A stretch of DNA of 63,880 bases, counting the filler. It is 4 parts of 4 records of this genome, joined end to end, with 100 filler letters (N's around TTAATTAATTAA, not from the genome) between each part and the next. Parts side by side here need not be neighbours in the genome. Positions count along the whole stretch, not along the records: positions 32,305 to 63,880 come from SRR2962707_920; 3 more parts are not named here. One strand, given 5' to 3'. This document shows, one piece after another, positions 1 to 53,800 of this stretch. Made by a program: the position numbers and the translations under genes. The first letter of the stretch is position 1. Each line of letters begins with the position of its first letter. The notes below the pieces were generated by a model, which searched no databases, was not told where the DNA came from, and was given only the letters and a program-made list of their open reading frames with translations.

Positions 1-1
1 C

Positions 2-27084: not shown

Positions 27085-27085
27085 A

Positions 27086-29480: not shown

Positions 29481-29516
29481 GGAATGGCCATCATTAGCAG
29501 AACAACGAGTCGTCCT

Positions 29517-30185: not shown

Positions 30186-30858
30186 CGCCAAGGCCGCCCT
30201 GGAACCGGGGTGGATGAACGTCCTCGCGGCGGAGTTCGACAAGGATTACATGGTGCGTCTGCGGGCGTTCCTGCGTGAGGAAAAGCAAAAGGGCGAGACC
30301 GTGTTCCCGCCGGGCCCGGACATCTTCCGGGCCTTCAACGATACCCCCTTCGAGGACGTCAAGGTGGTGATCCTGGGCCAGGACCCGTATCACGGGCCGG
30401 GCCAGGCCCACGGCTTGTGCTTCTCGGTGCAGCCGGGCGTGCGGGTGCCGCCGTCGCTGGTCAATATCTTCAAGGAAATCGAACGGGATCTGGGCATTCC
30501 CGCCCCCGATCACGGTAATCTGGAGCCCTGGGCCAAGCAGGGCGTGCTGTTGCTCAACGCGGTGCTCACCGTGCGCGCCGGCCAGGCCGCTTCCCATCAA
30601 AAGCAGGGTTGGGAAGAGTTCACCGATCAGGCCATCGACCACATCAACCGTGAGCGCGAGGGCGTGGTGTTCATGCTGTGGGGCAGCTACGCGCAAAAGA
30701 AAGGGCGCCTGATCGACCGTCAGCGCCACTGCGTGCTGACCGCGCCGCACCCGTCGCCGCTGTCGGCGCACCGCGGCTTTCTCGGGTGCGGCCATTTTTC
30801 CCGCGCCAACCAGTATTTGATTCAACAGGGCAAGACTCCGGTGGATTGGGCCCTTTAA
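30178..30858 (+). CDS. ung: Uracil-DNA glycosylase family 1
   Basis: GQDPYH, PPSL, LLLN, HPSPLS motifs. Confidence 0.98.
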
Positions 30859-30974
30859 CGGCTTTTTGCAACACCCGGGTGCTTTCCGTGGTTTGATACT
30901 TGCTATAGCGATTGTTTCTCCAATCGATTCTTTTTCGATCGGGATTTCTATCGGAAAAAGGAGCCCGTGCCGGC

Positions 30975-32087
30975 ATGACCGACACCGTTCTGTTTCAGGA
31001 ATTGCCCACCGCCTCCGGCCATGTGATTGGCCGCGCCACCCTTAACGCTCCCGCCGCCCTCAATGCGCTCAGTCTGGACATGATCGAGTCACTGAGTCGG
31101 CGGCTGGACGACTGGCAAGACCGTGACGACATCGTCGCGATCTGGCTGGAAGGCGCTGGTGACAAAGCGTTTTGCGCCGGCGGTGATGTGGTGGCCCTGC
31201 ATCGGGCCATGGTGCGCCACGCGGGCAAGGACCGGAATCCGGAAGTGGAGGCGTACTTCGCCGCCGAATACCGCCTCGACCACCGTCTGCACCGCTCGCC
31301 GGTACCGGTGATCTGCTGGGCCGACGGCCTGGTGCTCGGTGGTGGCATGGGCCTGATGCAAGGCAGCACCTTCCGGCTGGTGACGGCAAACAGCCGGCTC
31401 GGTATGCCGGAAATCAACATCGGTCTGTACCCGGACGTGGGCGCCAGCTGGTTTCTCAATCGCCTGCCGGGCCGTACCGGTTTGTTCCTGGGGCTCACCG
31501 GTGTTCATTTCGATGCCCGCGATGCTTTGAATCTGGGGCTGGCGGATCGCTGCCTGGACCAGGACGCGGAGCACCTGCTGGATGACCTCGGCGGCCAGAG
31601 CTTCACTGGCGAGCGCGCCGCCGACCATGCCCTGCTGTTTCGTTTCTTCCGCGATGCCGCCCACTATCCGTTGCAGCTGGACGGCGCCGTCAGTGCCCGC
31701 CGTAATCTTATCGACAACTGGTGCGACGGCGCCGACCTGCCGGAAGTGGTGGACACTCTGCTGGCGGCGAAGGAATGCGACAGCTGGCTCGACAAGGCCC
31801 GCGCCAACCTCACCGGCGGCTGTCCGCAAACCGCTTTCCTGGTGTGGGAGCAACTGCGCCGGGCGCGTTATCTGTCACTTGAGGATGTGTTCCGCATGGA
31901 ATGGACGCTGTCGGTGCAATGCGCGCTGCACGCGGATTTTCGCGAAGGCGTGCGGGCGTTGTTGATCGACAAGGACGGCAAGCCGCGCTTCCGCCACCGC
32001 AGTGTGCATGAGGTGCCGCCGGGGTACATCGACACTTTCTTCGAAAACCCGGCGCCGCGGCATCCGCTGGCGGATTTGGGATCCTAG
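30975..32087 (+). CDS. Enoyl-CoA hydratase/isomerase family, 3-hydroxyisobutyryl-CoA hydrolase-like
   Basis: KAFCAGGDV, GLVLGGGMGL, MPEINIGLYPDVG, DFREGVRALLIDKD. Confidence 0.92.
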   Translation: MTDTVLFQELPTASGHVIGRATLNAPAALNALSLDMIESLSRRLDDWQDRDDIVAIWLEGAGDKAFCAGGDVVALHRAMVRHAGKDRNPEVEAYFAAEYRLDHRLHRSPVPVICWADGLVLGGGMGLMQGSTFRLVTANSRLGMPEINIGLYPDVGASWFLNRLPGRTGLFLGLTGVHFDARDALNLGLADRCLDQDAEHLLDDLGGQSFTGERAADHALLFRFFRDAAHYPLQLDGAVSARRNLIDNWCDGADLPEVVDTLLAAKECDSWLDKARANLTGGCPQTAFLVWEQLRRARYLSLEDVFRMEWTLSVQCALHADFREGVRALLIDKDGKPRFRHRSVHEVPPGYIDTFFENPAPRHPLADLGS

Positions 32088-32183
32088 CGGAAAAAAACAC
32101 GATTCGTGGGCACGCCTACACGCAACACGCCGGCACGCTATATCCAAAGCCTGCTGACTGGTTTTGGAGAAGACGGGCCGGGA

Positions 32184-32204
32184 TTCGCCAGCAGGCTGGC
32201 TCCC
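32184..32204 (-). repeat. REP-like palindromic repeat at contig end
   Basis: Minus strand GGGAGCCAGCCTGCTGGCGAA resembles GTAG/GTGG-class gammaproteobacterial REPs; only one copy is visible. Confidence 0.65.
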
Positions 32205-32304
32205 NNNNNNNNNNNNNNNNNNNNNNNNNNNNNNNNNNNNNNNNNNNNTTAATTAATTAANNNNNNNNNNNNNNNNNNNNNNNNNNNNNNNNNNNNNNNN
32301 NNNN
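32205..32304. other. Artificial contig linker
   Basis: N44-TTAATTAATTAA-N44. Confidence 0.99.
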
Positions 32305-32328
32305 ACAACAACAACAACAACAACAACA
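32305..32328. repeat. (ACA)8 microsatellite at contig start
   Basis: Direct reading. Confidence 0.95.
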
Positions 32329-32475
32329 GGAAAATCTTTGTTTTTTTTCTTTTGTGTGTGTGAGCTTGGGGCGCAAGAGTAGAGATCGTGACAAAGCAAG
32401 TGTCCCCTGCAACTTCTGTTTGTCTGTCCATCTCTCCGTCCATCATACTTGGACACCGTATCGGTTATTTCCATC

Positions 32476-35400
32476 ATGGCTTTCCACCAGCGTGGCGGTG
32501 GGGGCAACGCGCACGCTGCCCTGGGGGTCAACAACGCGCCTTTCAACGGCTATGTGCCCAGGCGTGAGGGTATCGTGAACCCAGCCTTGTTCGCCTGTTA
32601 CCTTGACCGGAAGTTTCTCGAAGCTGGTGAGGTCGTGGCTGTTGTCGGAAGTTGCGAAGCGCTCCATGGCTGGGACTTTGGCGTTGAGTTGGAGCAAGAC
32701 CCGGCCAATCCCAACCTGTGGATGCGTAAAGTGGTGATGCCTTTTGACAAGAACGAGCGCTGCTACTCTGGTATTTTCCAGTTCCAGTTCGCGATTCGTA
32801 GTGCGAACGGAACCCAAATCTGGCACGAGGGAGGAGACCGCCGAACTGTTCATCGCATGGTGCCCTCGTTCTTTGGGTCGTTTCGCTATACCAAACGGGT
32901 CGCCCGTTTTGCATCCACAGGCGTAACACCTCCTAGCAATTTCACTGTTGCCAGAGAGTTTTTGTTGCAAGCCCTCAACGCATACGAGGACAATCCTGAG
33001 GTTTTCAGTGCGCGTGACGTACTTGAGCAGTACAGTGGAGTGGACAGGGCGTTTGAGCCCACGCCCCAAGTGGCAATTGCCGCCACAGACGACCACATCG
33101 CGGCAGTGGCTGGCGTTCGTGGTGGTTGCTCGGACGTTGCTATCTTGCTGGGAACTGCCATGGTGGGCAGCGCTGCCGAGAGTACAGCTTCACGCGAGCA
33201 AGCAGATGCTGCCGCTCTGGCATCGGAACTTGAAGATGCAGGGATGTCCATGGCCGAGCAAATTGAGATGCGCGAGGAACAGCTTGCGATTGCCGCGGTT
33301 GCTCGGGCTGAAGAGCGCCGCCGTGGAACACGCGGGGACAAGAGCGCTACTGTCCCAGCCCCCTTGGAACAGGAACCGGTGACTCCATGGTGCATCCGGG
33401 CGCTTCGGTCTGCGATCGAGGCCCGCGATGGATGGGAGAACGTTCTTGAGGAGTTGCTTCCACCGCGCCCAGACATTCCTGAAGATGGAGGAGTGGGAGT
33501 CCTGCTTGAGGAGCAAATGGAACTTTTGATGCGTGGTTCCCGCGACGCCAAGCCCCACTGGTGTGAAAGTGCCGTTGGGAATGGATTGCGACTGGCTATT
33601 GCGCGCGTGGGTCATGAAAACGGCCAAGATTATCGATGGCTCACCTCTTCTCCTTTGCTGAACCGATCGCGGCTTGTGAGCGGAGGTGGCCACCAAAGCA
33701 CGGTCCCAGAGCCAAAAGAGCGATTTTCCACGTCCACGGATATTACAGATGCATTCCTCAAAGCGACCAATGAGGTGTTTAATCGAATTGATCTTCACCG
33801 TGAAAAACTGTTGGCGCAGCCGCCAATCACATTTGGCGACTTTGGCATGGGAGGTGGTGGCGCCGGTGCTGGAAATCTCGTCGCTGCAATGCGAGCTATG
33901 GGAGGCGCGGGCGGCGCTCACCTTTTGCGCCCAGTTGAAACTTGGATGAGCACCGAGGGAGCTGGGCCACGCGGACAGGGGAAGTCAGATTCGGTTGTGA
34001 TGCTGGAGTATCTTTTTCGATACGCACCAAACTTCCAAGTCGTGTACGAACTTCTTCGACGGTGCTACTACCACAAATATGGTAAAGAGGGATTGTTCAA
34101 CCATGCTCTTACCGGTGCAGCTCGGTGGATCGGGTCTTTCCCATGGTCCACGACCTCTGAAGTGAAAGAGCTCACTGACACGCTTCGCGATCGAATCCCT
34201 CCCTTGCGCACGCCGGCCGTGGCCGCGAGTGTCTTGCGCAAAGAATGCATTGATGGAATGTGCGCATCCTCTGAGGGGCTGCAGGAAGTCCTCCGCCTCA
34301 TTCATACATGTGTCGGCGACCAGCCAGCTGCTTATGGGGGCCCAGCAATTGCAGCCACTCGCGGCTGGTTCAAGCGCCGCCATGGTGGACCCGCTGATGG
34401 TGGCCAGGGCCAAGACGCAATGTTGCCTCGCATCCTCGCGGCACTGCATGAACTCAATTCACTGCTGACTATTCCTTGCTTCGCGCGAGACCCACACGTG
34501 CTGGCGGATGAACTTGAGTTTCTAAAGACTGCCGGGGATCGGCGACACACGATTGAACTCCTGGCTCAGATTGCCAAACATTACGGCGACATGCCTCCAT
34601 CAATCACCACACCCGTGCTTTGCCGCCTGCTCAAGAATAAAGCATCCACGACAATCGCAGACTACTTCAACAGTGATAGAAGTGCTGTTCGTGCTCGCTG
34701 GATTGTGGAAGTCCTAACCAGTGCCATTCCTGCCACACCGTCAACGACCACACCTGGCGTTTGCTTCACCCCAACCGTCCTTGGTAACTTTCTGAGCCTT
34801 ATCTTCAGCCGCGCTGTTCAACGCAATCGAACTTTGGTGCCCCATGAGTGCGTATGCCGTGTTTACGAGTGAGAACCACTCATTGTTCAAGTTGCACACT
34901 GTCGTAATCACGTCCAAAGTTTCTGCTACTAGGACATGATTTTTGGCGATGCTGCCTTTGTGTTTTCGCTGACAGGTACTTTGTTGGCGCCGACGACCTT
35001 CCTTCAGTTTTAGGATTCCATTCCGCACTCGCTGCAGGCCTTTCCTGGGCCACTTCAGCCAGCAATGTAGATGCAGTTCGAGGCACTGCCCTTGATAGCC
35101 TGCTTGCTAAGTGCCTTGCTGCTATTCGGCAGTTGGCTCACGAGCTGCACAGCCGCAAAATATTCCTCGGAAGCCTTCGCGCTGTACTGCGACAGCCCAT
35201 GGAGACGCTGGCTCTTGTCGATGCAGCGTCGCCAACAGACCTGGTGTCTCAAGGCATGCTGGAGGAATATCGCGAAACGCTTGTGAACTTTGACTTTGAG
35301 CTAGAGGCAGTGCAATACTTTTTGACAAGTTACTGCAATGACGGCGACCGCACAGTGTAAGTTGTAGGCAGGATCCACCGCCGCAAATCATTTCCTCCGA

Positions 35401-38400
35401 TCAAAGAATACTAACGTTTGTGTCAGGTTGTCTCGCTTGTGGATTTGTGTAAACTCACATTGCGACGTGATATCACCTTCGGTAGGTACCGCGTTCCCAC
35501 CAACGTGTCCCGCCTCAAAGATGCCGTGGACGAAGTCGCTGGGACCTTGTCTCACGATGGTTATCAGCTCCTCGATATTCATGGGGGCGCCACGATTGCA
35601 GCCGTGGCTGAAGTGTTGGCTCGATTTGGGGCCGTTCCAAAGCTGCACACACTTCGCAATTCGGAAATATTTCGTGAGCTCTGGCAGGCCAGCGGCGAGG
35701 ATGTGAGGCGCTGGCCTGCACCTCCGGCTGAGTTGTTGAACCGTGCCCCTGCAGTTCAGGAGAAGATTCTTGCCGCAATCCCGCCGCCTGGCAATAAAGC
35801 TGCTGTGGACTATTTCGCCAATCCGAAACATCACGCCTCAACGGACAAAACCGCAGGGGCATCACCCGGTCACTGGTGGCGCAAGGCCAATGTTGCAGAT
35901 GGCAAAGCCGGCCAAAAGAGATTGGAGAACTTGCCGCTGAATCTTTCGGCAAAAGAGCTGTCATGGCTGGACTGCGTGAGCGCGTTAGCACAGGAGGCGG
36001 ACGACACGTGGACACGCGGGCCTTCCAACGGTGGTTTCTTGTCTCCCGCTGGGCGCACCATCCTAAAAGTTCACGGCTTTCAGCCCACTTTCGCTGGGGC
36101 ACATCGGCCACTTCACGCGCTGCATGTTCAGTATCTGTGGCTGCCACTAGTTCTGAGACGCTGGGCCACGCTGCAAAAAGCGCTTTTCGATCGCTCTGCT
36201 TGTATCGACTCCCTTGAGATCACATTTGGCCAGCTACGAACGGGTGATTTGCGAGCCAGCTGTGTGCGCGAGCTTACTTGGATTCTGGGCCTTGGTGACG
36301 AGAGCCAAGTCGACCCCGCCATCAAGCGTGGTGTCTCAGACTTTGTGCGTCTGAAACAGCTGCGGCCGCAACTTTCCTCTCTTGTGAACCTCTTCAAGTC
36401 GTTGTCCAAAGCTGATGGGTCCGCTTCAACAGAGAACGATGACCGAAGTGAGGCTATTGACAACGATCTGCTCTCACTTCCCCCAGGGGCAGATAAGACT
36501 GTTGAAATGCTTTGTGCTGCGGATAACAAGTTGTCCTTGGAGTGGACACCAGAATTCTCGCCGGTGCACACACTGCAGACAATTGGGTCTTTGCTTGACC
36601 CCGTTCGTGGCGTTGCTGAGGCACTGAGTCCATCGCAAAGTGAATTTCTTGCACTTCTTGGCGAAAACCCTGTGCTCGTTCTCTGGCTACGCCGGTACGC
36701 TTCATGATAGTTGTATTGTTGTCTCCGCCGTGTGGCCACTGTAGACTGTCAAAGTACTCGTCCTTGATTGTCCACCCCAACTTTACCCTTGTGCAGATAC
36801 CGAGATCAGGACGAGTTTGACAACAAACTTCAAGTGGCACGAGGGCTTGGCTCGATCACAGAGCCAGAGCTTATTTCTGCCATTGAGTCGCTGAAGCGAG
36901 TTCGCGTGGCATTGCGGAGCATCCTCTACGTGGATCCCGACCATCGGCACACTTCGTTCCTGCAGTTTTTGCAACGTTTCGCTGAGAACGTGGCAATGAG
37001 TGCACACAGTCTTGGGGATATGAAGAGCCTTGGCGTAGTTGGCGAGCGGCTCCTCGAGGTTCTCGATAAGCAGACGAAAGGCGCGGGGGTGCGAAACTGT
37101 TACGAGCTGGTGGACATTCATGTGAAGGGCAAGTTTGCTCTCGTTGCATCACAGATCAAGGACGATGTGCTTTTGTTGCGCGTGGCTGGAGCCCCGGACC
37201 GCAAACTTGCGTAAGACACGCCCGCTTCGTGTATGCACGCGGTGTGAAAGTTATTCGTATTTGCCGGATCGTGCTCCGTTTCACAACAATGTCACCTCAC
37301 CGTCGTGGTTTTTTGCACGAAATTGGATGCTGCAACGTTTACCTTAGATACCTGCAAGATTTGCGAGCGAAGTTGATGATGACCGAGATCTCTGCAGAAC
37401 TGGACAGCGAGACCGCGACTGAGCCGAACGCAAAAGCTGGTGTGAAGGCGCTCCTGGAAGCCTTTGCCTCCCAGCTCGAAGTGCTGGAGCGAATTCGGGA
37501 CCAGATTCACGCACTGTGCTGCGCTGGCCACTACACGTGCGTGTCACTGCGTTACTTCGACTACCTGTGCCGATTTTTTCGTCTTCGCAACGTTGCATGA
37601 TGCGTGTGATTGCTTTCGTCGGCGAACTGTCAGGTACCAAGCTGGACATGAGCAGACTTTCGACTTTCGTGACGTTTCTGCGGAGGCGTTGAAACGCCTG
37701 GAGGAAACCTACGCTGAAAATGAGCTTGAACTGGTCCACTGGAATGATGTCGTGGACAAAGCTCGGGAATCCTGTTTCTTTCTCAACTACTTCACCATGC
37801 AGGAGTTGTGGGCCCTTCGGGCTCGCATAATTGCTGTATTTGAGACTGCGAAAGAAGCTGCAGATGCCATGGCCAAATCCTCAGCCGACCCCTCTGCAAA
37901 GAAGCTGAAAGACAAAGCAGACCGTCGCCGTGCGAAAAAGGCTCAAGCAATTGCAGACGTCAAGACAATGTTTCACTTGGTTGTGTCTTCGTCGGAGGTG
38001 GTGGAGGTTGCAGTGAACTGCATGACGAGTGACGCGGCACAGACCGTGACATCGGAAGTGTGTGGACCAGTCGACCCATCTTCCCCAGGCCATATTCTTT
38101 TGGCGATCGGCAACCTGCTTGAACTGTGTTTCCCTGGGGCGAAGGCGGCAAGTTCCCACCGAAAGCTATCCAAGCTGGATCAGTCGGTGGAGAACGCATC
38201 TGATATGCTTGTGTCCCTCCGCGACGTCTCGAGTGGAACCGGGAGCGGCGGGAGTTCGAAGAACGTTTCCGAAGTTTCTGCCTCAGCCGTTGGCAGTTCC
38301 TCCGAAGAACATCCGATTTGGATATCAACTGCACCCGACCCCGAGCAACCTGGGATGACGTTGGACATGGTCCTGAGTGTGTTCGTTCGGCGTGGACGGC

Positions 38401-41400
38401 TTCCGGAACCAGGCGAGATTGTCTTTTGTGAACCAAGCACAACAACCGAAGAGCTTAAGCTGCTCTTGAGGCGCTTCATCAGCGCCGGTGCCAACCATCG
38501 TCGTGACTTTATTTTCTGCCTTGTGAACGTGGACAAGCTTCCTTACACTGAACAAGTGACCCTTGGCAAGATGATGAAGCACTTCCTTGACACTTACGGA
38601 ACTGCAAACGCCAGCGGTCTGTTGATATTGTCCGGTCAACCAGATCAGCACATCGTCAATGCTTGGTCCGCTTACCGTGTTGCTGCCTCACCTCTTCGCG
38701 CTGAGATTCTTCAACAGAAATGCGCGGAAGCTTTCGAGGACCGTCGTGAAGGACGAGGGGGGTCATTGTTGCGGTGCGTGCGCAGCACCATCAACGGCGG
38801 AGGCAAGACTCACTTTGTCCTGTCGGCTGCTGCCGCAGCCCAAACATCTGCAACCGCAGCTGGGACTGGCGAAGTGAAATACTTCCGGTTTGGGTACCGC
38901 GAGAATACCACTGCAGGGCTGCTCGTCCAGAAGCTTACGTCAAAGTTGAAATTCTCTCACACATCACAATCCACTGTCGATTCAAAACCTCATTCTCACT
39001 TTGTTCACCTTGACGTTGGGCATGTTGTTCCCCGCACAACGAACACCGTGCTTTTCCAGCTTTTTTTTGTGGGTGTCATTAGTGATCAGGCAAGCGGCCA
39101 AATTTACCACCGCGACTCCAGTGATACGTTCGTTTGATGCCGTCTTGTTGCTGGCTTCTTGGCAGACATACTGCTGATCTTGCTGAAAGTGATGATCATG
39201 AATGCCCTTTGCCACTTTCGATGCGGCGTAGGTATATGGTAGAGATGGCCAACTCACCGGCTGTATTCGAGCTGCTGCGAATATGCCGGTTCTTGCCCGG
39301 CTTCGAAGCGCCTCTGACGATCGGCCCTGACTTTCTGCGATTTCAGCGGCCAAGACTTTCAGGCAAAATTACGTCCGTATTTCTGCTTATTCCTGCAACT
39401 CTCCAATACCTTTGCGGTTGGAAGCAGAAAAACTGATCATGTGCGCATGCTTTTGCTTCGTTGTGATCAATCCCAGTTACAACCGTCGGGGCCAGCGCCG
39501 CGGCGAAATGGTATCGGTAGACATCGAAAGCAATGACCTGTTACGCCACGTATGCCGCGTCCTGAAGGCATTGGATCAAGGGTCGTTTCGGCAGGGTGAG
39601 CCTTCGTTTGTGGAGAAGCTGAACTTCAACGACATTCCCGTTGAGCCTTCTGAATGTTTTTCGTTGATTTGCAAACACTGTGGTCTTGCTCCTCCCGGAA
39701 GCGTGACCCCCAGTGACATTGAAGAGAAGAGCAATGCAGATGATGAACCTGATGCACTCCGGCAGCCTGGTACTGGAAACGGGCAGCACAGCAACGCTGC
39801 TGCTATTGGTGGTGCGCCGGCAGACAACCCGCAGGACGAGTTGGATGCCGCGTCATGGACGGTTGTCTCGAATTTTGTCAACTACATTGGAGCTCAGTTT
39901 CGTGGACTAGAAGGCCACCGTGGCTGGTGCACATTCCCTGGTCTGGTTAACACATGCGGTGTCACTACTCTTCGTCTCTTCCGACACCAATTTTTGCTCT
40001 TGCTGCTCGAAACGACTCGCGATTTCGCAAAGCGGGCGGTGCCGCGCGGGCGCCAATTTCTTGGTGGCACAAGTGGTGCAGGAGCTGTGCCGAGTTTGTC
40101 ACGGCAGTTAAGTCTACACCGGCAAATGTCATCGTCATCCACGTCTTCACTTGGACCGCGGCGCCAGTTGAGCCGTCAATCAAGTGCGTCTGATCGTGCA
40201 CGTGTCGCATCAACTGTAGCCGCTGCTCGTGAACGTGCAGAACAGGAAGCTATTGAGAACGCCGTGCTGTCCTGCGCCATCGCTGGCTTTGAGAAAATGA
40301 AGAACTGGGAGGACACCGACCACCCGATTGCTGTCTTATACCCAGTTCTGGGTGATAAATCCCGAACACAAAACTTCACTCTATTTGCTCTCAACCGCGC
40401 TCATACCGCGCGGTTCATCCCGAAAGAGATGGCTGATGCCGTGCAACAACAATTGCAGATCGATCTGTCCAAAGATTGGTCGAAAATTACAGACGCTGAA
40501 GGCCGTCGTACGATCTCACGATTAGCGGGGATCATTGGCATTCAAGACCTGAAAGAAGGTGGCAAAGAGCTACGGCGTCTGTACGACAAACAAGAAGCCG
40601 TGTGCTTAACATGTTTGGTCGAAAAGGCCGATCAAGCGCCACCTGGCTACGTCATGACTGTGGACAATATGGCCAAAATGCTGAGTATCTATAACCGCAT
40701 GATCACTCACCTGCCTGTTATCATTATGGGTGAGACTGGATGCGGAAAATCAAGCCTAATCCGTCAAATGTGTGCCCTCATCAAAGCTCCGCTTCGTACG
40801 CTCAACATTCATGGCGGCATGGGCGATCGGCAAATCATTGACTGGATGTGGGCTCAATTTAAGGAGTACGTCGAAAGGCTGTGTCCTTTTATTTCCGTGT
40901 TTTCAGTCATTGCGTGTGTATGTGACCGCTGAAGTCTTGTGGTTGTGTCATTGTTAATATCCAGGTTTCGTCAAGCCGACATTGAGGAAAACGGAGGGCG
41001 CTTTATCGTATTTTTGGATGAAGTCAACACTTGCAACAGCATGGCCCTGTTCAAGGAGATTCTGTGTGACCGCATGCTTGAGGGTATGGCTTTGCCCGAG
41101 TCTTTTATCGTTGTTGCGGCGTGTAATCCCTACCGACGCCGGAAGCAGACAATTGATGCCAATAAGCACCTGGAAGCTGGCCTAAAGTACCAACCTGCGG
41201 CTGCTGGCACTGGGGAGGCCGAAGCGGGCGTCGCTGCGGTCGAAGAAATTGACATGAAAGACTTAGTTTACCGTGTGTTCCCGCTTCCTGAATCGATGAT
41301 GGACCATGTGTACGACTTCGGTGCCTTGGATGCGACCACGGAGCAACTTTACATCGAACCAAAAATTTCGAAGCATCTGAAACACCGGCCACGAGTTAAG

Positions 41401-44400
41401 ACGGCAAAACAAGTCTACATTGAAAGTGGTAAGGGATGTACGGCTGAACAATGGGCTGAGCTAAGTGATGCACAACGAAAACCTTTTGAGGCGATTGTTG
41501 CTGACGCCAAACTTGAGGCCACGCAGCGTCGCAGAGGCTTTTTGGCCTTGTACGCGGCGTTAATTTGCGCGGCACAGGAGTTTGTCCGCGAACAAAATGG
41601 CGGTGAACGGTCCTCAGCGTCACTGAGAGATGTCGATCGATGTGCCCAGATATTTCGATGGTTTGGTGAACACTTGGCGGCTGAGTTTGGTGAAGAAGAA
41701 GAATGGACGTTGGAGGACTTTCTGGAGGTCCGCCCAGTTGCACAGCGTCATGTGCGCACAGCTGTCATCATGTCGATCGCCTATTGCTACCACGCTCGGC
41801 TTGACCGCAAGCTTCGACAAGGGCTTCGTGACAGGCTTTCGCAGTGCCGCGCGAGTCTTCTGGAAAGGTGAGTGTCACAGCGTAGCCGTTGTCTAAAAAC
41901 GGTTGAGGCCAAGCTTTGTCGCTCAGCTGGAGGCGCTTGACTGTGCAACTTGGTTTTAATAGGTACGAGTTTGACATGGTCAGCCTCACCGAAAAACACA
42001 CCCGTGCAATGAAATCGACATCGGCCCAAACGGACCAAGAACTCCAGGCGACTCACGGTCTTGAACAGCGCGCGCTGCGGCTGTCTGGGGTTGAATGGCT
42101 AGATCTGTCATCGGCATCGTTCATGCAGGAAGTCGAACGGGTGCAAACTTACTTTGTGTCAAATATGAAAGTTGGGGATGGCATTGCCCGCAATGAAGCT
42201 CTTTGTGAGAACTTGTTTATGATTCTCGTCTCTGTTCTCAACAAGATCCCGATATTTGTTATTGGTGTCCCTGGCTCGTCCAAGTCGCTTGCAATGCGAC
42301 TTATTCAGTCCAATCTTCGTGGTTCTGCTTCCAGTAACGAGTTTCTTCGCAAACTCCCTGCGGTCGAGGTGTTCCCGTATCAATGCTCTCCTCAGTCCAC
42401 GAGTCAAGGAATCGAACAGGTCTTTGGCTCTGCAAATCGCGTTGCTGCTGAAGCTCAGAACACTGTCGTTGTCGTTCTGCTTGATGAAGTAGGACTTGCG
42501 GAGTACTCGCCACATCTTCCGCTGAAGGTGTTGCACAAGCTATTGGATGAGGCGCATGGCTCACAGGCACTAGTGGGAATTTCCAACTGGCCTCTTGACC
42601 CTGCAAAGATGAACCGTGCTGTGCACCTGTACCGACCGGCGCCAACAGCAGCAGATCTTGCTGTCACCGCGTCGGGCATCGTTGAAAGTGAAAGTTTGCG
42701 TCCTTACTTGAAAGCTTTGGCAAGTGCCTACCACGACGTTGTGGAGCAACAACGAGAACAGTGCGTAGCAGCGAGCGTGCATCCATTCGTTCTCTCTGCT
42801 TCACTATCTGTCATTGTTACATTTGTGGTCCAATGTTCGACTGCTGGTTATTCAACTGTCGTGCAAATGGATGCAGGTATCGCAATGAAACGCAGGCAGA
42901 TTTCTGGGGTCTCCGTGAGTTCTACTCGCTTGTGAAGAAGATCAACTTTGATATCCGGCGGCTGCGTGCCGCAGGGGAAGCAGAAGATTTGCATCCGCAG
43001 CAGCTTCTCTTTTCGATCCAGCGCAACTTTGGCGGCCGCCCAAGCGACATGGAACCTGTGTTGCGGATTTTCTTTGAACGTCTTGGCAAACAGCAGCTGC
43101 TGGCCGAGCTCCAACGGATGCCAGTGCTCGAGCTTGTGCGTGAAAATCTCGGTGCCATGCAGGAGTCACGGCACCTTATGATCCTGACGAAAAACAATGC
43201 CACCACTGCCCTATCGCTGCTGTACGACAACGGTTTGGTGGATCACGAGAATAGTGAGGTGATATTTGGCTCCGACTTTCCTCATGACGATTCGGACTTG
43301 CAGATTATTCTTAACTTGCAACGGATCAAGAAGTGCATGGCTGAGGGCAGAACTGTTGTTTTGGTGCACTCACGGGATGGTTTCTACGAAACTCTGTACG
43401 ACTTGCTGAACCAAAATTACACGGAGCATGGAGGTCAACTGTAAGTTCGGATATCGCGTTGAGTTGTCACCAGTGAGAATGTCGACGCTTGGTTGTCTCT
43501 GATACTGTTAACTTGTGCTGGCGCTGGTGCTGGTGCTTCCGTTGACGCTAGGTATGCCCGTTTGGCGTTTGGCAACTCGTACGTTCTGTGCCCTTTAGTC
43601 AAGGAATTCCGAGTTGTTGTCATTGTGGACCAAGCGGACGCGTACACCAAACTTGCTCCTCCACTGCTCAATCGATTTGAGAAACAGGTTTGCAAGTTTA
43701 CATTCTCACTGTCTGTTGTTACTTGTAACCACACTGTCGTCGGTCGCCGTGGTGGAGGATGAATGACGCCGTGCCGTGTGCTGTCGTGTGCCAGGTGCTT
43801 ACACGCCAACATCTTCTTGGGGATGATCGTCGAAGCCAGCGGGTTCGAGACACCGTCCACCGGCTGAAAGCCTTTGTTCATTCATTCGCAACTGTGTCGT
43901 TTGTTGACGCCGAGGCAATAGCTGCAGTCGACGGCGATCCCGCCATGGTTCGCGATGCTTTTTGTGGGTACCACAAAGATATGCTGTTGTCCCTTGCCCA
44001 GTCAATGGAGCTTGAATCATTGAAAGCTGGATCTAACACTGCCACGGCAGCAGCGCCAAAACCTCAGATTGCTTCAACACCTTTGCAGCAAGCAATTCGT
44101 CGACTTCTGTGGTGTGCAACTCCGGAGGCAGCGTCGAGATGGATGGCTGACACCGAAGCCGTTCGTGCAGCAGCCCAACAAGTTGAAGCAGAATTTGGGA
44201 TCGACATCGAAAAGATCTACTTTCAGGATCAGCAGCACTCGAATCTCCCCACTTTTGTACGCACGCTTGCTTTGCGTGAAAGTGCTTCATCGCACGGTTC
44301 GCCGACCATCGACGGCACCTTTTTTGCAACTGAGAACATGGCTGCCGCAACAGTGGCTCTAACATTCGCTCCTTTTCACCATGACACAGCTGCTCTCGTC

Positions 44401-47400
44401 AACGCTGTGGTTGAAGGAGTGCACGCAGTCGAAGTCACACTGCATCAGCTATCGAGCGAGCATGATCTTCGATCTGAAGTTGCCGCATTTTGCAGCGGCA
44501 CCAAGGATGGGATCCCTGCGGCGTGTAACAAGTCAGATGCAGAAATTTCGACGCAGCTTCTTATTATCCACTGTGATCCAACCGTAGCCTCGGCCCAGCG
44601 AGTTGAGCACGCCAAGTACATCGTCGAACAGGAGCGTGCAGCACAGTCAGCGGCAGAAGCAGCTGCTGCAGGTGCTTTGAAGGGTGTGTCACGCCATATT
44701 CTTCTGCTCGTCCACTTGCCTCGTGGACAGGCTGGTCAACTTATCCCGGTGGATTTTAATAAGCGCTGGAAGTATGCGTTTGTTGATGCAATTGACAGCT
44801 CTGACACCAATGGCATGCCAGACATGCAAGAGCTTCTCACCATGAACTCGAGTATGCATGTGATTCTGAAAAATCTGGACCTTGATCGAGTATTCCGCAG
44901 CGTATTCCGCAGTGCCCTGGCCAACTTGAAACTCCCTTTTCGTTGTGGCACTGAGTTTTACCTTCACAAAATCCATTCCTTGCAAAAATTAGTGGAAGCC
45001 ACTTGCACAGATGCGGAGCCACGATTTTTGGCTTTTACTCGTGAAATTATGTGCAAAGTCATGGAGACCGAAAACATGTCGCTCAACATGAATTTGTCTG
45101 GTCGCTCAGATCTTCTTCTACGAGGCACTTTCCAGAACTGTCTGCACGCTCAAATCCTTGCAGCGGCACGGCGTGCACTCACCGTGCTCTTGGCTCATGC
45201 TGAGCGAAACTCATACCTGGCATTGCTCGATGTCAACGCTCTCGCGAGTCTTTCTGACCCGGAACGAAGTCATCTCTCTAACCTTTGGTACCGTTTGTTC
45301 CGGAAAAGTTGTCCGAAGGAGATCGAGGAGCAAGCTGCGTCGGCCAACTCTGTGTCACAAGCCATGGTGGTTGTCAAAATGGATTCTCGGCAGACTGGCA
45401 CTCGTTTTGAGGCACACTTCCCGTTCTCTCACTTTGTGGCCCGCCTAGTTGAAACGCATCGAAGCATCTTTGTGCCACAATTAAGCAATGAGTCTCTTGT
45501 CACTCTTGAGACCAACCTCCGGAACCAAGTTTGCGCTTTGCATCGGCTTGAGTTGAGCTTGGCCAGTGAATCAACCACTGACATGAGTGCGGAACCAGCT
45601 GATGATGAATTGCAGCCTTCGCTGGAACAACGGTACGTTCAAAATATCAAAATATCCCTGTTCCCTGTATTGCTGGGCCAAGTTGCTTGTTCTTTCTTGT
45701 CGGTGTTTATAGTTGCTCTCTTATTTTTTCCTAGTTACCTGAGGGATTTCGTGATGATGTTTGTTCTTGACGACGAACATCGAGAGGTAGATGCGGGCAG
45801 CGTGGTTTTGCCGGTCACTCGCAAAGTACTGCAGCTTGCAACTGGCACGACTCCCTCCCATCCAAGTGATATTCATATTCGCTTCTGGAAGTACGAGGAT
45901 AAACTCCGCCAATACCTTCGCCTTCTCAACAGTCTGCCCAACAATCGGCAACAAATTGTGAGGGATGATTTGTGTGCTGTGGCTGACAAGTCTCTGATCG
46001 CAAGCAACAACCCCGAAGTCGCTCTCGATGTTCGCGTTTTGTCACTGGTTCTCGCACAACTCGAGAGCATGGTGGCGGATGAGGCCATTGAACCCGCGAC
46101 ATGGCTTCGCACATTCCACGACATGGAAGAGCTAGTTGTTCAAATCATGGATGACGGAATCACAGCCCTAACAACTGTTGATGAGCCTAGCAATGGAAGT
46201 GATAGTGGTAGGTTGGCAGTAGAAGCGCTTTGTGTGCGTTGGGAAAAGCTCTCGCTTTTTGCAATGTTTCTTCGCGATGTTACCATCCCATTGGCACCTG
46301 CATTGGGTGTGCAACAAACACACAAGAATCGGACAGCCCTGTGGGCAGGAATGTCTGCACCAGATGAAAGCATTCGCTCTCACAGGTTCTTTGACAGCAT
46401 TTTTGGACTACTCCGCGACGTATCGGCTGTGACCGACGCATCATCCACGGCCAGCGCCTTCTCAAGGTTCATCGACGTCTATATTTCGGAATACGTCTTT
46501 GCAAGTCCCATCGCCTCCCAGACGCAAGCCGCGCAGAGCAAAGTTGACCACGATCTATTTAAGGATGTAATAGGGCTGTTGTCCAAGGACTCTATGACAA
46601 TCGCAAATGGCGGGGAGGCAGCCGCAACGGCGCTGAGTTTGTCGTTACCGGAATCAAGTCGTCTATCCCTCATGAGGACAGTATTGGACGTGCAGGAGCC
46701 GTCAGTAAAGGCCAAAGTCGATGAGTTCCTCGAAGCAGCACTTCCATGGGCTGTTGCAGGAAATGGTTTCCTTGATGAACCACTCTGCGTGTGCTACGTG
46801 TATGTGTGTGAGGGAATGATCCATCGGAAGCTGCAAGCCCACTCAGGAGGCGATAATATTGTGCATCGCGCGCTTTTGCTTGCCCAGCAGTTCCAACTGG
46901 AACAAGCGCCCTTGCTGCAGACGCCCTTGTCACCAGAGAAAGTGGCTGCCTCCACTGGCCGGCAGCTTCGTGACCTTCTTGACGCTATCGCAACTGCTCG
47001 AGCTTTGTATGATATCGCTGCAGATTTGCTTTTTAAAGACCCATCTCTTGCAGACCTTGCTGTTGATCAGAGTCCTGGCGCTACATTGCACACGGATTCG
47101 GCAGAGCTAGTGCGCGTGCTCAATCGCTGCCTGGTTCCCACCAATACAGCAGAATCTAGTGATGGAGGTACAACGGCAGCTTTTTCCCAAAGCAGTTACT
47201 TGCAGTCACTTCAGATTTACCTTTTGAAAGGACTCGAACGACGCGGTGGGCTGTCGTTCTTGCGGGGTGTTTTGGCAAAGCCAGCTGTCGGCGCAGCAGA
47301 TTGGTGCGTGAACGGTCTTAAGCGCAGTGCTGTAGCTCACCCACATTTTACTCGCTGGACTATGGGCAGCAATCTGCCCACATCCAACCCGATGCGCGAT

Positions 47401-50400
47401 CATCGTGGCGCAGAAAGTATGTCAATTGCCCTTGACGGGTTCCTACAGACTGAGGCTGCAACAGATCTTGAGGGAACTTTTGTCGCTGCTGCGCGCAAAT
47501 TCCTCACCGACGAACCGTGGGGAGAGGCATATTTGCCGGGTGCATTGTTGGTGGCTGTCTTTCACAAGTGCTATTACTTGCGCGCTCAGGCTCTTGACAT
47601 GATCCCGCCACAAACTCGGGAACGTGTGGCGTTGTTGCATGAGTGGCTGGGTTCCAGTGGGCAGGCCGAACTAAAGCTCCCTGACCTAGTTTTGAGCATG
47701 CTGCTGCGGTTCACCACCCTAGACGTTTCAGTGGACGAGTTGCAGGCGAAGAGTCACGATGCCTTTTACCTTGGTCCAAACTCGACCACCAACGACATTC
47801 TCAAGACACGGGTCCTTGTGCATATGGTAGCGGTGGCGTCAATGGGCCTGGACAAGTCCATTGCGGGTGTGCGGCCTCTTTTGGCATTCTTTACGAGTGT
47901 GCTGTACCACCCTGAAAAGCTGAACGGAAGCTACTTTCCGCAGATGCCAATGGACCATTTGTATGTTGCACAATGAACGTTGCTGCGTCATTCGATCAAA
48001 GCCGTTTCTGGCATTCTAGTCCTGTTTACGTTTGATTTGCTTTCCTATGTTATTTGCTTTGCAAATGTCATTTGGCAGGTACTACATGATGTGCAACATG
48101 CGCTTTGCCGAGACTGGAAAGCGCGGACGCTGGATGTACTGCCGCAACGGCCATCCGTACTGCGTCGACGCATGCGGGCGCCCGACCATCGTGCAAAAAT
48201 GCTCTGCGTGTGGAGTGTTGATCGGTGGACTTGGCCACGATCAGATAGAGTGAGTGGCATTCATGCATGCAATGAACAAATTCGCTTTTGCTTTTGCTTC
48301 AATTGACCGCGACGACAAAGTGACTCGGTGTCAATTTGCATATTTCACGAAGTTGGCTGCTGTTGCGTGTCATGTGGTGAAGATACATCGGCGATTGGAA
48401 TTTGGGTGTGCATGGTCAATATGGCGATCCACCAGAGCTCCGTCCGAAAGGTGAGGTTCAAAAGGATCGAGATGTTGATCCGGCTCTGCAGGGCAATACC
48501 AATTATTATCAAGTGTCAACCCCCCAAGACAATTCTGCACCACAGTATTGTCTGACAAAAGCAGAAGAAGGCTCGACAACGCTCGCAGACGTGAGTGAGT
48601 CATTGCGGGAGGTTCCCGCTCGGGACTGCCGCGCGCAGCGCCTACTGCTACACGCTGCTCTTCTTGCGGGTGCTCATTTTGGTGGATCTGCTTGGCTGAG
48701 AAAGGCTGCCAACTTTTCGAAGGCTATTGAACCAAATTCGGAAGGTCTGCCTACGTTGTTTGCTGGGAGGTTCATGCTCGACTGGGAACGCATGAAAAAG
48801 GTCCTTGGATCCCTTGGTGACGATGACACGGAGCTCATCCTTCATGCTGCAATTACTGGATTTGGAGAAGCCGCTCGGACAGCTGTTGAGCGCAGATTGC
48901 AGCCGCACACTCCGAGCTCAGCATTTCTGGCATCGCGTGAATCACGGGCAATGTGGGAACGGAATGTTCACAAGAGCATTCTTGCTGATATCGTAGCAGA
49001 TGGACAATTGAGTCGCAAACTAGCAACCATGAAAGAATTATATGACGACGAAAACGAGCATCGCGTCGGAATAATGCTGCAAGAGCGTGCGCTCGCGACA
49101 TACGACACTGCAGAGCGCGCGCGCGCTGCTCCTGCGCTTTTCCGTTTCAGGCAGGCATTTGCTGCAGACACCTTTGAATTCCATGTCCACGCTGCACGGG
49201 AGCGGTTCCCACTTCTGCACAGCTTTGTGACGGAGCCAGACCAGGTACGCGGCGCTCACTATCTTGCCGATGCGCTGGATTGGATGCGGTTGCTGACAAC
49301 GCAGTATAATCGTCGAATTGCGGAGAAGACTGCCGAGCAAGAGATCAAAGTGGCCGATGTGCTTGCGGCTTACGGACAAGCAGTGCAATGGCAACGTGCA
49401 TGGCAAGGTTTTGAGGCTGCGTGGGCATTGGAAGCTCACTTGGGTGTGCCCATTGAGTGTGGCACTATTACGCCAGAAGGCATTGCAATGGGGTTGGATT
49501 CGCAACTCGCTCTGTGCCTGCCAGCGCACGAAAACCAAGGCTTACTCACGAAAGCCCTGGCAACCATCTTAACACGGCTGCACAACAATCTTCGCGAGCT
49601 GGCCCAGGAGCATCTCGTGGCTCGCGGGGGTGGGGTTGTGGAACCCTCGCAAGTATCATCACGAAATTTCACTCGCACCCACACGATTCACAAAAAGCGG
49701 GCGAGCTACGAAGCAGCATTTGCAGCATTCACGGAGTATGTTAAGCGTCACTGCCTCGTGTATTCGACAGAGACAGGCAAACTAACATACGATCTGGCTG
49801 CCGCCGAGCGCTGGCTTGTGGACGAGTATTTTGCGACGTGCCCAACTGTAAAGCTCGAGTTGAATATGGTGTCGTATCTAGGCGAAAGTGCTATCTCTGA
49901 TGCACTTCTGTCACTAAAGCGCACCATTCCGCAGGAGCCTCTACCGATGGAACTCAAAGCTCAACTCAAGAGAACTGTAACGAACCGAACAATAGCTCAG
50001 TCATGTATTGAAGAGCTTGAGCAGGTCGGTTGTGTGGCCGGTTGGTTGGTTGGTTGATATGGGGCTATTCTTAGTTGGCACGATTTTTATTTTTATTGTG
50101 GGATTGTGTGCATAGGCTCTCGTGATTATGGTCGACTCAATTGTACAAGCCGAGGTGGGCGGAAATACAAAGTTGTGGTCTGTGCTGATGCTCCAAAATG
50201 ACATTTTCAACGACATTCGCCTCAAGCATGTTGATGCGCTCAATACTTTTTTGGCTGAGCAAGTCTCAACTTCGGAATTCCCGTTGGTGCACAAGCAGTA
50301 CGTTGTGTGGCGGAGACTTTGATTTTGTTTTTTGATATTTGTTGTGCGTTTCACGATTTTTTCCTTCTTCGGAAATCCTAGGTACAAGGTCAAATTTACC

Positions 50401-50827
50401 GACGGCTTCAATGCCAATTATCATTCGTTTCCAGCCCCGAGCCAAGAGGCAGTGCAAAATCTGCACGATGCCGCTCGTCGTGCAGAGGGTCTCGAGGTCA
50501 TTGTTGAATGCATGCTGGAGCTGATGGAAAGCTATCTCATGGGCACAAATGTGGTGCGTGCAGTGCTTCAGTTGTTGCGTTCACCTGTGCTGCTCAAATA
50601 ACCTTGGTATGTGCGTCTAACGGCTTTCTATGCGTTACGGCTGCAAACAGGATCCCAGCACTTCCATCCGAGACGCTGTGATGGCTGACTTTGACGAAGA
50701 GTTAGAAGGCACTGACTTTGATCTCTTATTCCCCGAGGGCGAAGGCTCGCTCGTTCTCAACATGGGCCACTTCATCGAGGCCTACAAAGTGCTCGACCAA
50801 GCGCATAATTTTGCTGGCGACGTGTGA
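32476..50827 (+). CDS. Eukaryotic RNF213/mysterin-like giant AAA+ ATPase / RZ-finger E3 ligase, about 5465 aa, 19 exons
   Basis: CBM20-like N-terminus; Walker A GGGKT, GETGCGKS (40729), GVPGSSKS (42264); FLDEVNT, LLDEVGLAE, ISNWPLDPAKMNR, IFGSDFPHD, LYDLLNQNY, PLLNRFEKQ; RZ finger 48131-48238. Inferred GT-AG introns 34848-34975, 35357-35485, 36695-36796, 37211-37347, 37537-37633, 39128-39231, 39373-39476, 40866-40964, 41868-41962, 42761-42876, 43441-43551, 43688-43794, 45633-45734, 47961-48078, 48250-48382, 50025-50115, 50298-50381, 50554-50650 give one open frame of 16398 nt. Confidence 0.9.
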
Positions 50828-50895
50828 GCGTGGGACCATGCGAAGGAGACAATGAGCAGAAGTTTAGGGCGTTGACAACGTAGGCTTGTTTTAAA

Positions 50896-53800
50896 TTATT
50901 CGATGTCATTTCGATCGACTGCCTTGTCCTCGTGTCCGTCATGTAAAAACTTGACATGGAAAGTTCCATCGCCGTTATTAGCAACGACCTCAGCTTCCTT
51001 CATTTCGTCAGCATCAAAATCGTACCTGCGTTTAGCAAAATGCCGATCTCAACAAAAGACATCGCCAAGACACTCACTTTGAACACCAGCGTCCTGACAA
51101 CGACGTACGCTTGCACAGTGTCGCCTTCCGCCACACTTTCGCCATCTTCACTTCTGCCACTTTCACCGTTACCTTGTAGAGACTTAACGTCACGTGAGTC
51201 GACGGTGAGGTCGTCACCGTCGTCGAATTGAATGAGGTACCTAATTCAAATTGTTCACAGGAATTATTAGGAACACCTGCAACGTCCAAGGCTTTTTGCA
51301 GCGAGACCCAAGCGGAAACAATCTGCACACAGAAACACAAACGGCACCCACACGCACCCTCCGTCATCAGTCACTTCATTCACAACCCCTGGCCGCCACT
51401 CGGTTCCGTCTGATGTTGCTAACACACGGTCGTTGAGTTTCCATCGACCTGCACTGTCTAAACTGGAGGCAACTTTTGTTCGAATTTCATTTTCTGGCAC
51501 ATCCTCTTCTCGATCCCCATCGTCATAGGAAATAGAGTATGTTCCATTCCCATTGGCTGCATCAATCTTGCCGGCATACCACTCATCACCTCCGTTGTAC
51601 AGTGCTTCAACATCATCTCCAACCTTGAACTTTGTTCCTGCTGTCGAACTGTTCGGATCAAGATTGGCGGTGGAATTGGACTTCGCACGAATCAAATCCT
51701 CTTCAACGCCGGCTTCAGCATCGCCATCATCATACCCAACGTCGTAAGTCCCATCGGCGTTCACACTGTCTATTTTGCCTGGGAAGAAAGTCCCTTCTTG
51801 TCTGTAGTTTGCTTCGATAGAATCACCCTTGTTGAACTTGGGCTGTGCTAACGAGCCACCGCCAGCACTGGCACTGCCACTGGCGGCAGAGGTTCCATTG
51901 GAACGCTCCCGAATCAAGTTCTCATGCACGCCGTCTTCGGCATCACCGTCTTCATACGCGATATCGTAGGTGCCGTCACTGTTAACTCGTTCCACCTGGC
52001 CTGGAAAATAGGTGCCTTCTTGGCCGTAGTCGGCTTCGATCTTATCACCCGCTTTGAACTTGGGTTCAACTCCAAGAGGCGTGTCACCTTCGCCAAGTTC
52101 CTCACTGGCCACGGAACCTGCATCTTCGTTCTGATTGGCTGTACGGGGTTGAATGAGCTTCTCGTCCACGCCCCGTTCTGCATCTCCATCATCGTAGACA
52201 ATGTCGTAGGTACCATCAGCATTCACCTTTGAAATTTGACCCGGAAAGAACGAGCCTTCGCCATTAAAGTTTGCTTCAATTGGATTTCCCAAGTCGAATT
52301 TACGCACTTGGGCAGCGCTGCCACCACCACCATTGTGGTCCACACTAACCTCATCGAAATCGTGTTGTTCGCTCTTTTCTATCGTTCGGATTCTGTGCGC
52401 AGGAACTGCCTTCTCTTCATCTCCGTCATCGTAGGTAACATCGTACGAACCATCGCTATTCTTCGCACCAATTTTTGCAGGAAAAAAACTTCCCTCACCA
52501 GCGTAATTAGCTTCAACAACATCGCCAACAGCGAAAACCTTTGCGGCTGTAGCGCTTGTTGATTGCGAGTCAGCATCAAATCCACCGTCAACGACCTGGC
52601 TTGCTCCAGAGTTCTTGCCGCGAATTCGGGATGATGGAACGTCCTCCTCGGTATCACCGTCGTCATATGCAATGTTGAAAGTGCCATCAAGATTCACGGT
52701 CGAAATGACACCCGCAAAGTACGTCCCTTCGCCAGCAAAATCAGCTTCGACAGCTTCCCCTTTCTGAAATGCTGTCGTTTCTGTTGCAGGCTTTCTGTTG
52801 CGCAACCTGGAAACGGGAACTGCTTGCTCCGCGTCCCCATCATCGTAAGCAACATCATAAGTACCATCAAGATTACAGTGACTGATTTTTCCCGGAAAGA
52901 AGGCGCCCTCGCCTCCGAAATCGGCCTCCACAACTGCTCCAACCTCGAACATGTTTTCACTGTTGCCATGCATCGGGATATTTGACCGAGCCTGGGTTGA
53001 ATCTGCACGTTTGACCAGCCGTAAATGGTCTGCAGTCACCCCCTGTTCTGAATCACCATCTTCATACAAAATATCATAGGTTCTATCACCATTGACTTTC
53101 ACAACTGTGCCATCATAGTAGCTCCCTGCCCCAGCGTAGTCAGCTTGAACCCTGTCGCCCTCTGCGTACACTATTTTGCTTGTCGACTGAGATTCGGCAT
53201 CGAATGGGTCCACATTCGAACCGGCAGAATCAGTCTCTGACTCAGTTGCTTTCATCCTGATCATTTCTTCGGTCACACCCTTTTCGGTGTCTCCGTCGTC
53301 GTACGCGATGTCAAAGGTTCCATCTGGATTCAGTGCGGTGATTCGGCCAGGGAAAAAGTTTCCCTCTCCCCCAAAATTGGCTTCGACAACATCTCCAACT
53401 GAGCGTGTGCGGCCAACATGGCCGGCTTGGCCACCAGCATAACGAATGAGGTGTGCTGGAACGCTTTCCTCTGCATCCCCATCTACGTAATCGATGTTAA
53501 AAGTTCCATCCGCATTCACAGCTCCAATTTTCCCAGGGAACCAGGTTCCTTGGGCAGCAAAATTGCCCTCAATACTCTCACCAACACTAAAAGTTGGAGA
53601 TCCAAGTGCAGACTTTGCAGCTGCATCTGTCGACGCTGTCTGCTCACGTGGCAATTTGGAGTCCAACAAGCGGACTCTTGTGGCAGGAATTTCCCGCTCT
53701 TCATCACCGTCATCATACGATATGTCAAGCGTCCCGTTCGAGTGAATCACCGCAACTTGTCCTGGAAAATATGTGCCTTCGCCGGCAAAGTCGGCTTCAA

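Follow-up and report, generated by a model that had tools for sequence, protein, structure and literature searches.

The stretch of DNA analysed here, referred to throughout as the window, is 63,880 bases long and is composed of four contigs divided by three identical spacers, each made up of 44 N, a 12-base all-frame stop linker and a further 44 N. Only the fourth contig (32305-63880), whose first letters are an (ACA)n run, is eukaryotic, and GC content falls from ~0.60-0.63 before the last spacer to ~0.52 after it. Wholly inside this contig lies a gene for a giant protein related to RNF213 (mysterin) of vertebrates. Read from its N-terminus, the enzyme consists of a CBM20 domain followed by a stalk, a dynein-like AAA+ core in which two modules are nucleotide-competent, a helical ubiquitin ligase (E3) module, an RZ finger and a C-terminal domain (CTD). 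The coordinates of these and the neighbouring features are collected in Table 1.

Stop-to-stop open reading frames (ORFs) chain along the + strand from 32392 to 50827, and a search with the largest of them returned six long relatives, each with a Pfam RZ-type zinc finger. The draft gene model of 5506 amino acids (aa), with GT-AG junctions chosen under the guidance of homologues, was later corrected from a spliced contig found among public sequencing runs, whose contigs were placed on 32305-51300. This contig comes from run X2, which carries the same organism code as the probable source run, X1, and belongs to another study and year. It is a single sequence of 28,989 nucleotides (nt) that covers the gene on the + strand from 32367 (record position 38), and its listed pieces match the window with 0 mismatches and 0 gaps. 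Among the joints listed it omits 15 segments with GT..AG ends, 13 of which are introns already predicted from homologues; one joint placed the first donor at 34848 instead, and another revealed an in-frame intron at 45633-45734 that had been invisible to homologue-guided prediction. Four further joints lie outside those listed, and the last three introns (50025-50115, 50298-50381 and 50554-50650) consequently rest on homologue alignment. The 18 introns measure 84-137 nt (median 104). The start codon lies at 32476, with no ATG upstream of it in the sequence read between the contig start at 32305 and that position, and the frame stays open for exactly 5465 codons up to the stop at 50825-50827.

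Extending past the stop as far as 51241, the X2 contig exceeds the RNF213-like messenger RNA in length by ~12 kb. It has probably merged with the transcript of a convergent neighbour, the 3' ends of the two genes overlapping, so that it demonstrates splicing and exon linkage and not the 3' end. Because this one spliced contig covers the gene, the exons form one transcript. An earlier note on this DNA had put forward a protein of 5465 aa and had raised the possibility that the exons belong to separate transcripts; the corrected model returns exactly that length, on a single spliced RNA contig. In run X3 (organism B) a small share of words and low-depth contigs match the window at 95-99% identity or better. 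In X1 and X2 an additional contig matches the window up to 34307 and 47444 and then continues into unrelated sequence, with loose ends of 255 and 42 letters; these diverging contigs could represent a second allele, a paralogue or a repeat.

The relationship to RNF213 extends along the length of the protein. A family profile made from four relatives and the large exon and searched against PDB sequences gave nine distinct matches at E<=0.001, every one of them RNF213 (best E 4e-216). The match falls into three significant colinear stretches, comprising the end of the stalk with the first AAA units, the AAA core, and the RZ finger with the CTD, and the middle part, equivalent to the mouse hinge and E3 module, is unaligned. 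Single exons searched with phmmer against PDB matched RNF213 only, plus weak P-loop matches to midasin, with E values to RNF213 of 2e-9 for the Walker A exon, 1e-4 for the RZ exon and 3e-3 for the CTD exon. By BLASTP the model is colinear with rnf213-alpha of the fish Amia at near-equal residue numbers, aa 1769-2028 aligning with 1908-2162 (23% identity, E 3e-7), aa 2335-4187 with 2349-4006 (26%, E 1e-134) and aa 4638-5233 with 4461-4984 (21%, E 8e-17). Judged by these alignments, the gene encodes an RNF213 homologue along its length, and it is filed as an RNF213-like, RING-less family member and not as a RING-finger ligase because no RING was found in it.

At the N-terminus, the CBM_20 match scores 25.7 bits against a curated cut-off of 23.3. 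The AlphaFold2 (AF2) model of aa 1-200 is a confident beta-sandwich, with a predicted local distance difference test (pLDDT) mostly >90 for residues ~21-140, and Foldseek finds 57 PDB matches to it at E<=0.001, STBD1 among them with a target-normalised template-modelling score (TMt) of 0.81. We take the listed chains to be CBM20-type starch- or glycogen-binding domains (glucoamylases, GDE5, STBD1, beta-amylase and CGTases), the title of 4rkk being silent on the matter. By sequence, phmmer with aa 1-308 against PDB gave nothing significant, the best match being the CBM20 of GDE5 at E 0.34. In human RNF213 the CBM20 domain is placed at aa 378-515 (PMC11549300).

Within the six-unit AAA ring the assessment covered the two Walker-bearing modules. 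From their motifs, both modules are competent in Walker A and B: the motifs of the first align with Walker A and B of mouse RNF213 AAA3, and the second is the best-conserved part of the family, with 84% identity to the close database relative P0001 over 449-451 columns. The catalytic AAA residues described for human RNF213 are K2426/E2488 and K2775/E2845 (PMC11549300). A third P-loop-like motif, GPRGQGKS, occurs at aa 497-504 in exon 1, within the N-terminal arm and thus not in the AAA core; it falls in no Pfam domain and may have arisen by chance.

The RZ finger is the sole cysteine- and histidine-rich cluster of the protein. It aligns without gaps to residues 4447-4483 of mouse RNF213, with all six functional residues identical, and by this alignment the zinc ligands are C4706, H4710, C4726 and C4729 and the catalytic pair C4717 and H4738. 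Their mouse equivalents are described as metal ligands C4451, H4455, C4471 and C4474, nucleophile C4462 and general base H4483 (PMC12075652). The CTD that follows matches human RNF213 by phmmer (E 0.003) and, with the family profile (2828-3616), 6tay at 3859-4614 (E 2e-38), and the family alignment extends to the last residues. In the mouse enzyme the CTD is described as docking the ubiquitin-conjugating enzyme (E2) through F5093, W5097 and Y5106 (PMC12075652). These residues were located in the Amia protein by spacing only, and a regular expression for the mouse docking motif had no match in eight proteins; judging from the alignment, the E2 interface may differ, or the CTD may be wrongly aligned.

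Between the AAA core and the RZ finger lies the E3 module, where the relationship to RNF213 comes from structure. A phmmer search of the 1415-aa ORF against PDB gave nothing at E<=0.01, and the ESM Atlas gave no usable match with exon 13. The AF2 model of exon 14 (45736-47958; pLDDT 83.6) placed RNF213 at Foldseek ranks 1-9, with a query-normalised template-modelling score (TMq) of 0.38-0.49 against <=0.17 for the other listed matches. VIA-align against the human E3 module (9jwg_A, residues 3767-4640) superimposed 555 residues at Z 14.1, the next Z being 7.4. On this model, an RNF213-type helical E3-module fold is present.

The same region is where vertebrate RNF213 has its RING, and here it has none. 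RING and U-box domains were absent from the 18 exon translations scanned with Pfam (E<=1), and in an alignment of the 800 residues preceding the RZ finger the ~75-aa RING or U-box insert of other relatives is cleanly missing in the window. A cysteine-rich, RING-like insert occurs in fish RNF213 and Thecamonas and a U-box in six other relatives, always at a single site flanked by two conserved helices; that site is empty in the window, P0001, P0019, P0020, Incisomonas and a Picozoa-like protein. In the exon-14 model a loop of four residues joins helices 216-230 and 235-254 there. The mouse RING is correspondingly described as inserted between the final two helices of the E3-back, and the same source reports it as not needed for activity (PMC7311170); in PMC12075652 the RING of RNF213 is likewise described as dispensable for auto-ubiquitination and for ubiquitination of lipopolysaccharide (LPS).

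An hmmalign tally over 106 sequences extends this comparison. With 0-1 residues aligned, 35 of the 106 were non-assessable, and these include P0103 and P0119, which bear a Pfam RING; a few cluster mates were counted twice. The 71 assessable sequences comprise 49 with a short linker of 15-59 aa (the window included), 10 with a U-box-like insert, seven with an insert holding 8-10 cysteines and five with another long insert. Since 49 of 71 have the short linker, the RING-less state is common in the family. The U-box stands at the vertebrate RING site in the protist proteins P0034, P0036, P0025, P0030, P0039 and P0045, among others, and relative P0006 has a WWE-containing insert there.

The domain content that the earlier note had read from the sequence is borne out. 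It had described a full-length RNF213-like protein, colinear with RNF213, with a CBM20-like domain near 32590-32850, an AAA+ module carrying GETGCGKS and GVPGSSKS, an E3 module and an RZ finger. The colinearity is recovered from CBM20 to CTD, with the profile and Amia alignments in its support, Pfam and the fold matches place the CBM20 domain where it had been expected, both P-loops are present with a Walker B motif (hhhhDE) after each, and the RZ finger has its ligands and Cys/His dyad conserved. The E3 module holds in respect of its RNF213-type fold, and neither the Pfam scan nor the alignments place a RING in it.

Table 1. Features of the window (positions along the whole stretch; residues along the 5465-aa model)
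Feature	Position	Strand	Residues	Basis or remark
Whole RNF213-like gene	32476-50827	+		19 exons, 18 GT-AG introns, 5465 aa
5' untranslated region	32367-32475	+		covered by spliced RNA contig of run X2
Exons 1-5	32476-34847, 34976-35356, 35486-36694, 36797-37210, 37348-37536	+
Exons 6-10	37634-39127, 39232-39372, 39477-40865, 40965-41867, 41963-42760	+
Exons 11-15	42877-43440, 43552-43687, 43795-45632, 45735-47960, 48079-48249	+
Exons 16-19	48383-50024, 50116-50297, 50382-50553, 50651-50827	+
CBM20 carbohydrate-binding-type domain	32617-32847	+	48-124	Pfam CBM_20 E 1e-5
First active AAA module	40729-41028	+		Walker A and Walker B hhhhDE (41002-41028), across intron 40866-40964
GETGCGKS Walker A	40729-40752	+	2485-2492
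Second active AAA module	42264-42494	+		Walker A GVPGSSKS and Walker B hhhhDE (42465-42494)
GVPGSSKS Walker A	42264-42287	+	2932-2939
E3 module, all helical	43795-47960	+	3331-4684	exons 13-14; fold match to RNF213
RING/U-box insert site, empty here	46408-46488	+	4168-4194	MAFFT, hmmalign, AF2
RZ finger core	48131-48238	+	4703-4738	Pfam ZnF_RZ-type E 5e-16; exon 48079-48249
C-terminal region including CTD	48383-50827	+	4743-5465	four exons
Convergent neighbour	51267-63582	-		3348-aa giant ORF and 803-aa ORF with C2 domain
Phage-integrase gene	9257-10270	-		adjoins start of second contig
Artificial spacers	9066-9165, 26985-27084, 32205-32304	.		joins between contigs

The family to which this protein belongs is widespread among protists. 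A search with the conserved AAA region scored 1515 proteins, 1027 of them at E<=1e-5, with lengths of 2426-7720 aa. The named relatives, which carry source-database labels and EukProt accessions, include stramenopiles (Incisomonas, Pinguiococcus), Rhizaria, dinoflagellates and Amoebophrya, Telonema, Picozoa, Thecamonas, Rigifila, Amoebozoa, a choanoflagellate, a green alga, a glomeromycete and many animals. The closest relatives, environmental proteins and Incisomonas, are 44-51% identical over nearly the whole length, and one public assembly holds a protein that is 88% identical across all of exon 14. In a FastTree phylogeny of 115 rows, from which 12 redundant cluster mates had been left out and seven short matches dropped, the window groups with P0001, P0019, P0020 and P0050 (support 100), with the Incisomonas clade as sister (100). 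A quick IQ-TREE run on 51 rows recovers the same two groupings with support of 99 and 99, and in both trees the animal sequences sit in other, distant clades. The nearest named relative is Incisomonas marina, a bigyran stramenopile. On these trees the contig is not animal, and the gene tree suggests a host related to Incisomonas. The earlier note's attribution to a non-animal eukaryote agrees with both trees; for its further proposal of a protist, possibly a stramenopile, the single-gene tree speaks in favour, and the multi-Tudor neighbour that it had also invoked supplies no taxonomic evidence.

Several of these relatives carry misleading names. NCBI nr lists the close relative P0020 (5630 aa) as 'ATP-binding protein [bacterium]', and others bear the Joint Genome Institute (JGI) names 'MoxR-like ATPase' or 'EcfA2'; all these entries are probably eukaryotic contigs within bacterial bins, as in the window. 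The gene described here is not unusual, being one of many such database entries. A literature search over titles and the beginnings of abstracts found no paper on protist RNF213 homologues or on natural RING-less or U-box forms; among incidental co-mentions, PMC10643670 has the terms in its reference list only.

Taken together, the locus is very probably an intact, transcribed nuclear gene of a protist that encodes a giant RNF213-family enzyme, on a contig that was assembled or binned with bacterial contigs. Gene structure, transcription, homology, domain content and the conservation of catalytic residues are what the analysis shows. Several points weigh against this reading and should be set beside it. 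No sequence similarity to vertebrate RNF213 is detectable in the E3 module, whose fold match was obtained on a predicted model at a root-mean-square deviation of 8 Å. At the positions of mouse F5093, W5097 and Y5106 the protein has no aromatics in the MAFFT alignment, which is of low confidence there. A tree of one gene underlies the placement among stramenopiles. The family tree has an unresolved base and a very long branch leading to vertebrate RNF213, for which reasons one-to-one orthology is unsupported. The labelling of X2 as RNA is a guess, its nature as complementary DNA being inferred from the precise removal of introns. Finally, the contigs of X1 itself are one base short at 38757 and at 48520, which would be frameshifts if real; both positions are six-base homopolymers at which the X2 contig agrees with the window, and the losses are read as assembly errors.

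By analogy with the mouse and human enzymes, the most likely mechanism can be outlined, with its enzymatic activity, choice of E2 and substrates. ATP on the two Walker-competent AAA modules would switch the ligase on, and a ubiquitin-loaded, cysteine-reactive E2 would dock on the CTD and the E3 shell. Ubiquitin would then be transferred by transthiolation onto Cys4717 in the RZ finger and, with His4738 acting as general base, on to a nucleophile of the substrate, which is possibly not a protein. CBM20 may steer the enzyme to glycan-bearing surfaces. A RING or U-box would take no part in this mechanism, because neither is present.

What such an enzyme is for can be read in more than one way. 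The terms 'immune' and 'antibacterial' that had been attached to the gene come by analogy from mammalian work, as would any role in defence. A true RNF213 homologue could instead serve a housekeeping or metabolic purpose, such as the turnover of glycan stores or organelle surfaces through CBM20, with antibacterial use a later specialisation of animals, and we put this at just short of an even chance. The great breadth of the family, with 1027 matches and several deep lineages in the two trees, is consistent with it, as are the classical binding of starch or glycogen by CBM20 domains, reflected in the fold matches, and a contig with no visible immune context, on which the neighbour is a Tudor, Agenet and ankyrin giant. 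Against it, the same catalytic core acts on microbes in mammals, and the human CBM20 region is described as being under positive selection (PMC11549300).

A more far-reaching proposal makes RNF213-type ligases an ancient, eukaryote-wide system of cell-autonomous surveillance, in which an ancestral catalytic core of AAA ring, E3 shell, RZ finger and CTD is joined to a CBM20 glycan sensor, and the RING (animals, Thecamonas) and the U-box (Rhizaria, others) are interchangeable late additions at one hot spot. In a bacterivore-like protist, the RING-less enzyme would then attach ubiquitin to non-protein molecules on the surface of viruses or of prey bacteria that had escaped. This is offered tentatively, as a doubtful proposition in its entirety; if true, the protist enzyme would be a natural minimal RNF213 for mechanistic work.

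Two further explanations fare poorly. It is highly improbable that the model fuses two or more genes or describes a decaying pseudogene: P0001 and P0002, which are its closest two database proteins, do lack the first ~920 aa, and the X1 contigs have their 1-base deletions, but a single spliced contig spans the listed exons, the 5465-codon frame is open, P0019 aligns to aa 21-5292 in one high-scoring segment pair (44% identity), P0134 of the Incisomonas cluster (a mate of EP00750_P010789) is 5469 aa long, and the deletions fall in homopolymers and are absent from X2. Least credible of all is an animal contaminant or a recent transfer from an animal, for although the bacterial contigs in the window demonstrate that contamination occurs in the assembly, the nearest relatives over the whole length are environmental proteins and Incisomonas with animals in distant clades, identity to the fish protein is 21-26%, the introns are uniformly short and the vertebrate RING is absent.

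Around the gene, the window record is a mix of bacterium and protist. The convergent neighbour is dense in Tudor/Agenet-type repeats and ankyrin repeats, with one EF-hand. The other three contigs (1-9065, 9166-26984 and 27085-32204) look bacterial from their uninterrupted ORFs, their GC content and the Pfam families found on 12 of 14 scanned long ORFs. These families include FolD, an ABC permease and its NMT1-type binding protein, a GT4 glycosyltransferase, a phage integrase, an OmpR-type regulator, an SLT transglycosylase, a class II aminoacyl-tRNA synthetase and an enoyl-CoA hydratase. Fragments resembling the T-arm of a transfer RNA (tRNA) lie at both ends of the second contig (9166-9180 and 26970-26984), the first beside the integrase gene, an arrangement pointing to an integrated element that was split at a tRNA repeat; no whole tRNA was found in the window by ARAGORN, and a scan of the window with Rfam gave no match.

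The whole layout of RNF213, including the recently described CBM20 domain and the RZ catalytic dyad, is here intact and transcribed far outside animals, in a lineage that manages without the RING after which RNF213 was named, in agreement with the mouse experiments on RING dispensability. Such a RING-less member points to the RZ finger and CTD as the conserved engine of the enzyme. The distribution of RING, U-box and no insert at one site poses a concrete evolutionary question and offers natural variants with which to probe the contribution of the RING, and many protist relatives of RNF213 are already lying unnoticed in public databases. The gene alone does not demonstrate ancient antibacterial ubiquitylation.

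Compared with vertebrate RNF213 (mouse and human; PDB 6TAX, 8S24, 7OIK), the protist protein is alike in size (5465 aa versus ~5200 aa) and has the same order of CBM20, stalk, AAA core, E3 module, RZ finger and CTD, with Walker A and B in two AAA modules, the zinc ligands and Cys/His dyad of the RZ finger and the E3-module fold in common. It differs in having no RING finger, an E3-module sequence that is unrecognisable and no known interferon or immune context. It has no counterpart of the ~370-aa leader of the human protein, CBM20 beginning at aa 48, and the CTD aromatics that dock UBE2L3 in the mouse are not conserved in the low-confidence alignment.

ZNFX1 shares the RZ finger, described as a transthiolating E3 element (bioRxiv 10.1101/2025.10.14.682297), but is a superfamily 1 (SF1) RNA helicase with NFX1 zinc fingers and a Miz domain, whereas the protist protein has a dynein-like AAA core; SF1 helicase, NFX1-type zinc finger and Miz domains were not found by Pfam in any exon. 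Midasin (Rea1) and dynein heavy chains have concatenated AAA_5-type modules in common with it. The likeness to midasin amounts to ~40 residues at the first Walker A P-loop (phmmer E 5e-7), with no MIDAS domain and no midasin match outside the AAA region, and the family profile finds RNF213 only. The closest parallels are the uncharacterised RNF213-like proteins of other protists, including Incisomonas EP00750_P010789, Thecamonas trahens AMSG_01915 and chlorarachniophyte, dinoflagellate, Picozoa, Telonema and amoebozoan sequences, which have the same architecture. An N-terminal CBM_20 is also present in Thecamonas, P0065 and P0104, three of the ten homologues scanned, and the RING-less state is common to the window and 48 others of the 71 assessable sequences, while some protist relatives carry extra UBA, WWE, RanBP-zinc-finger or PH domains.

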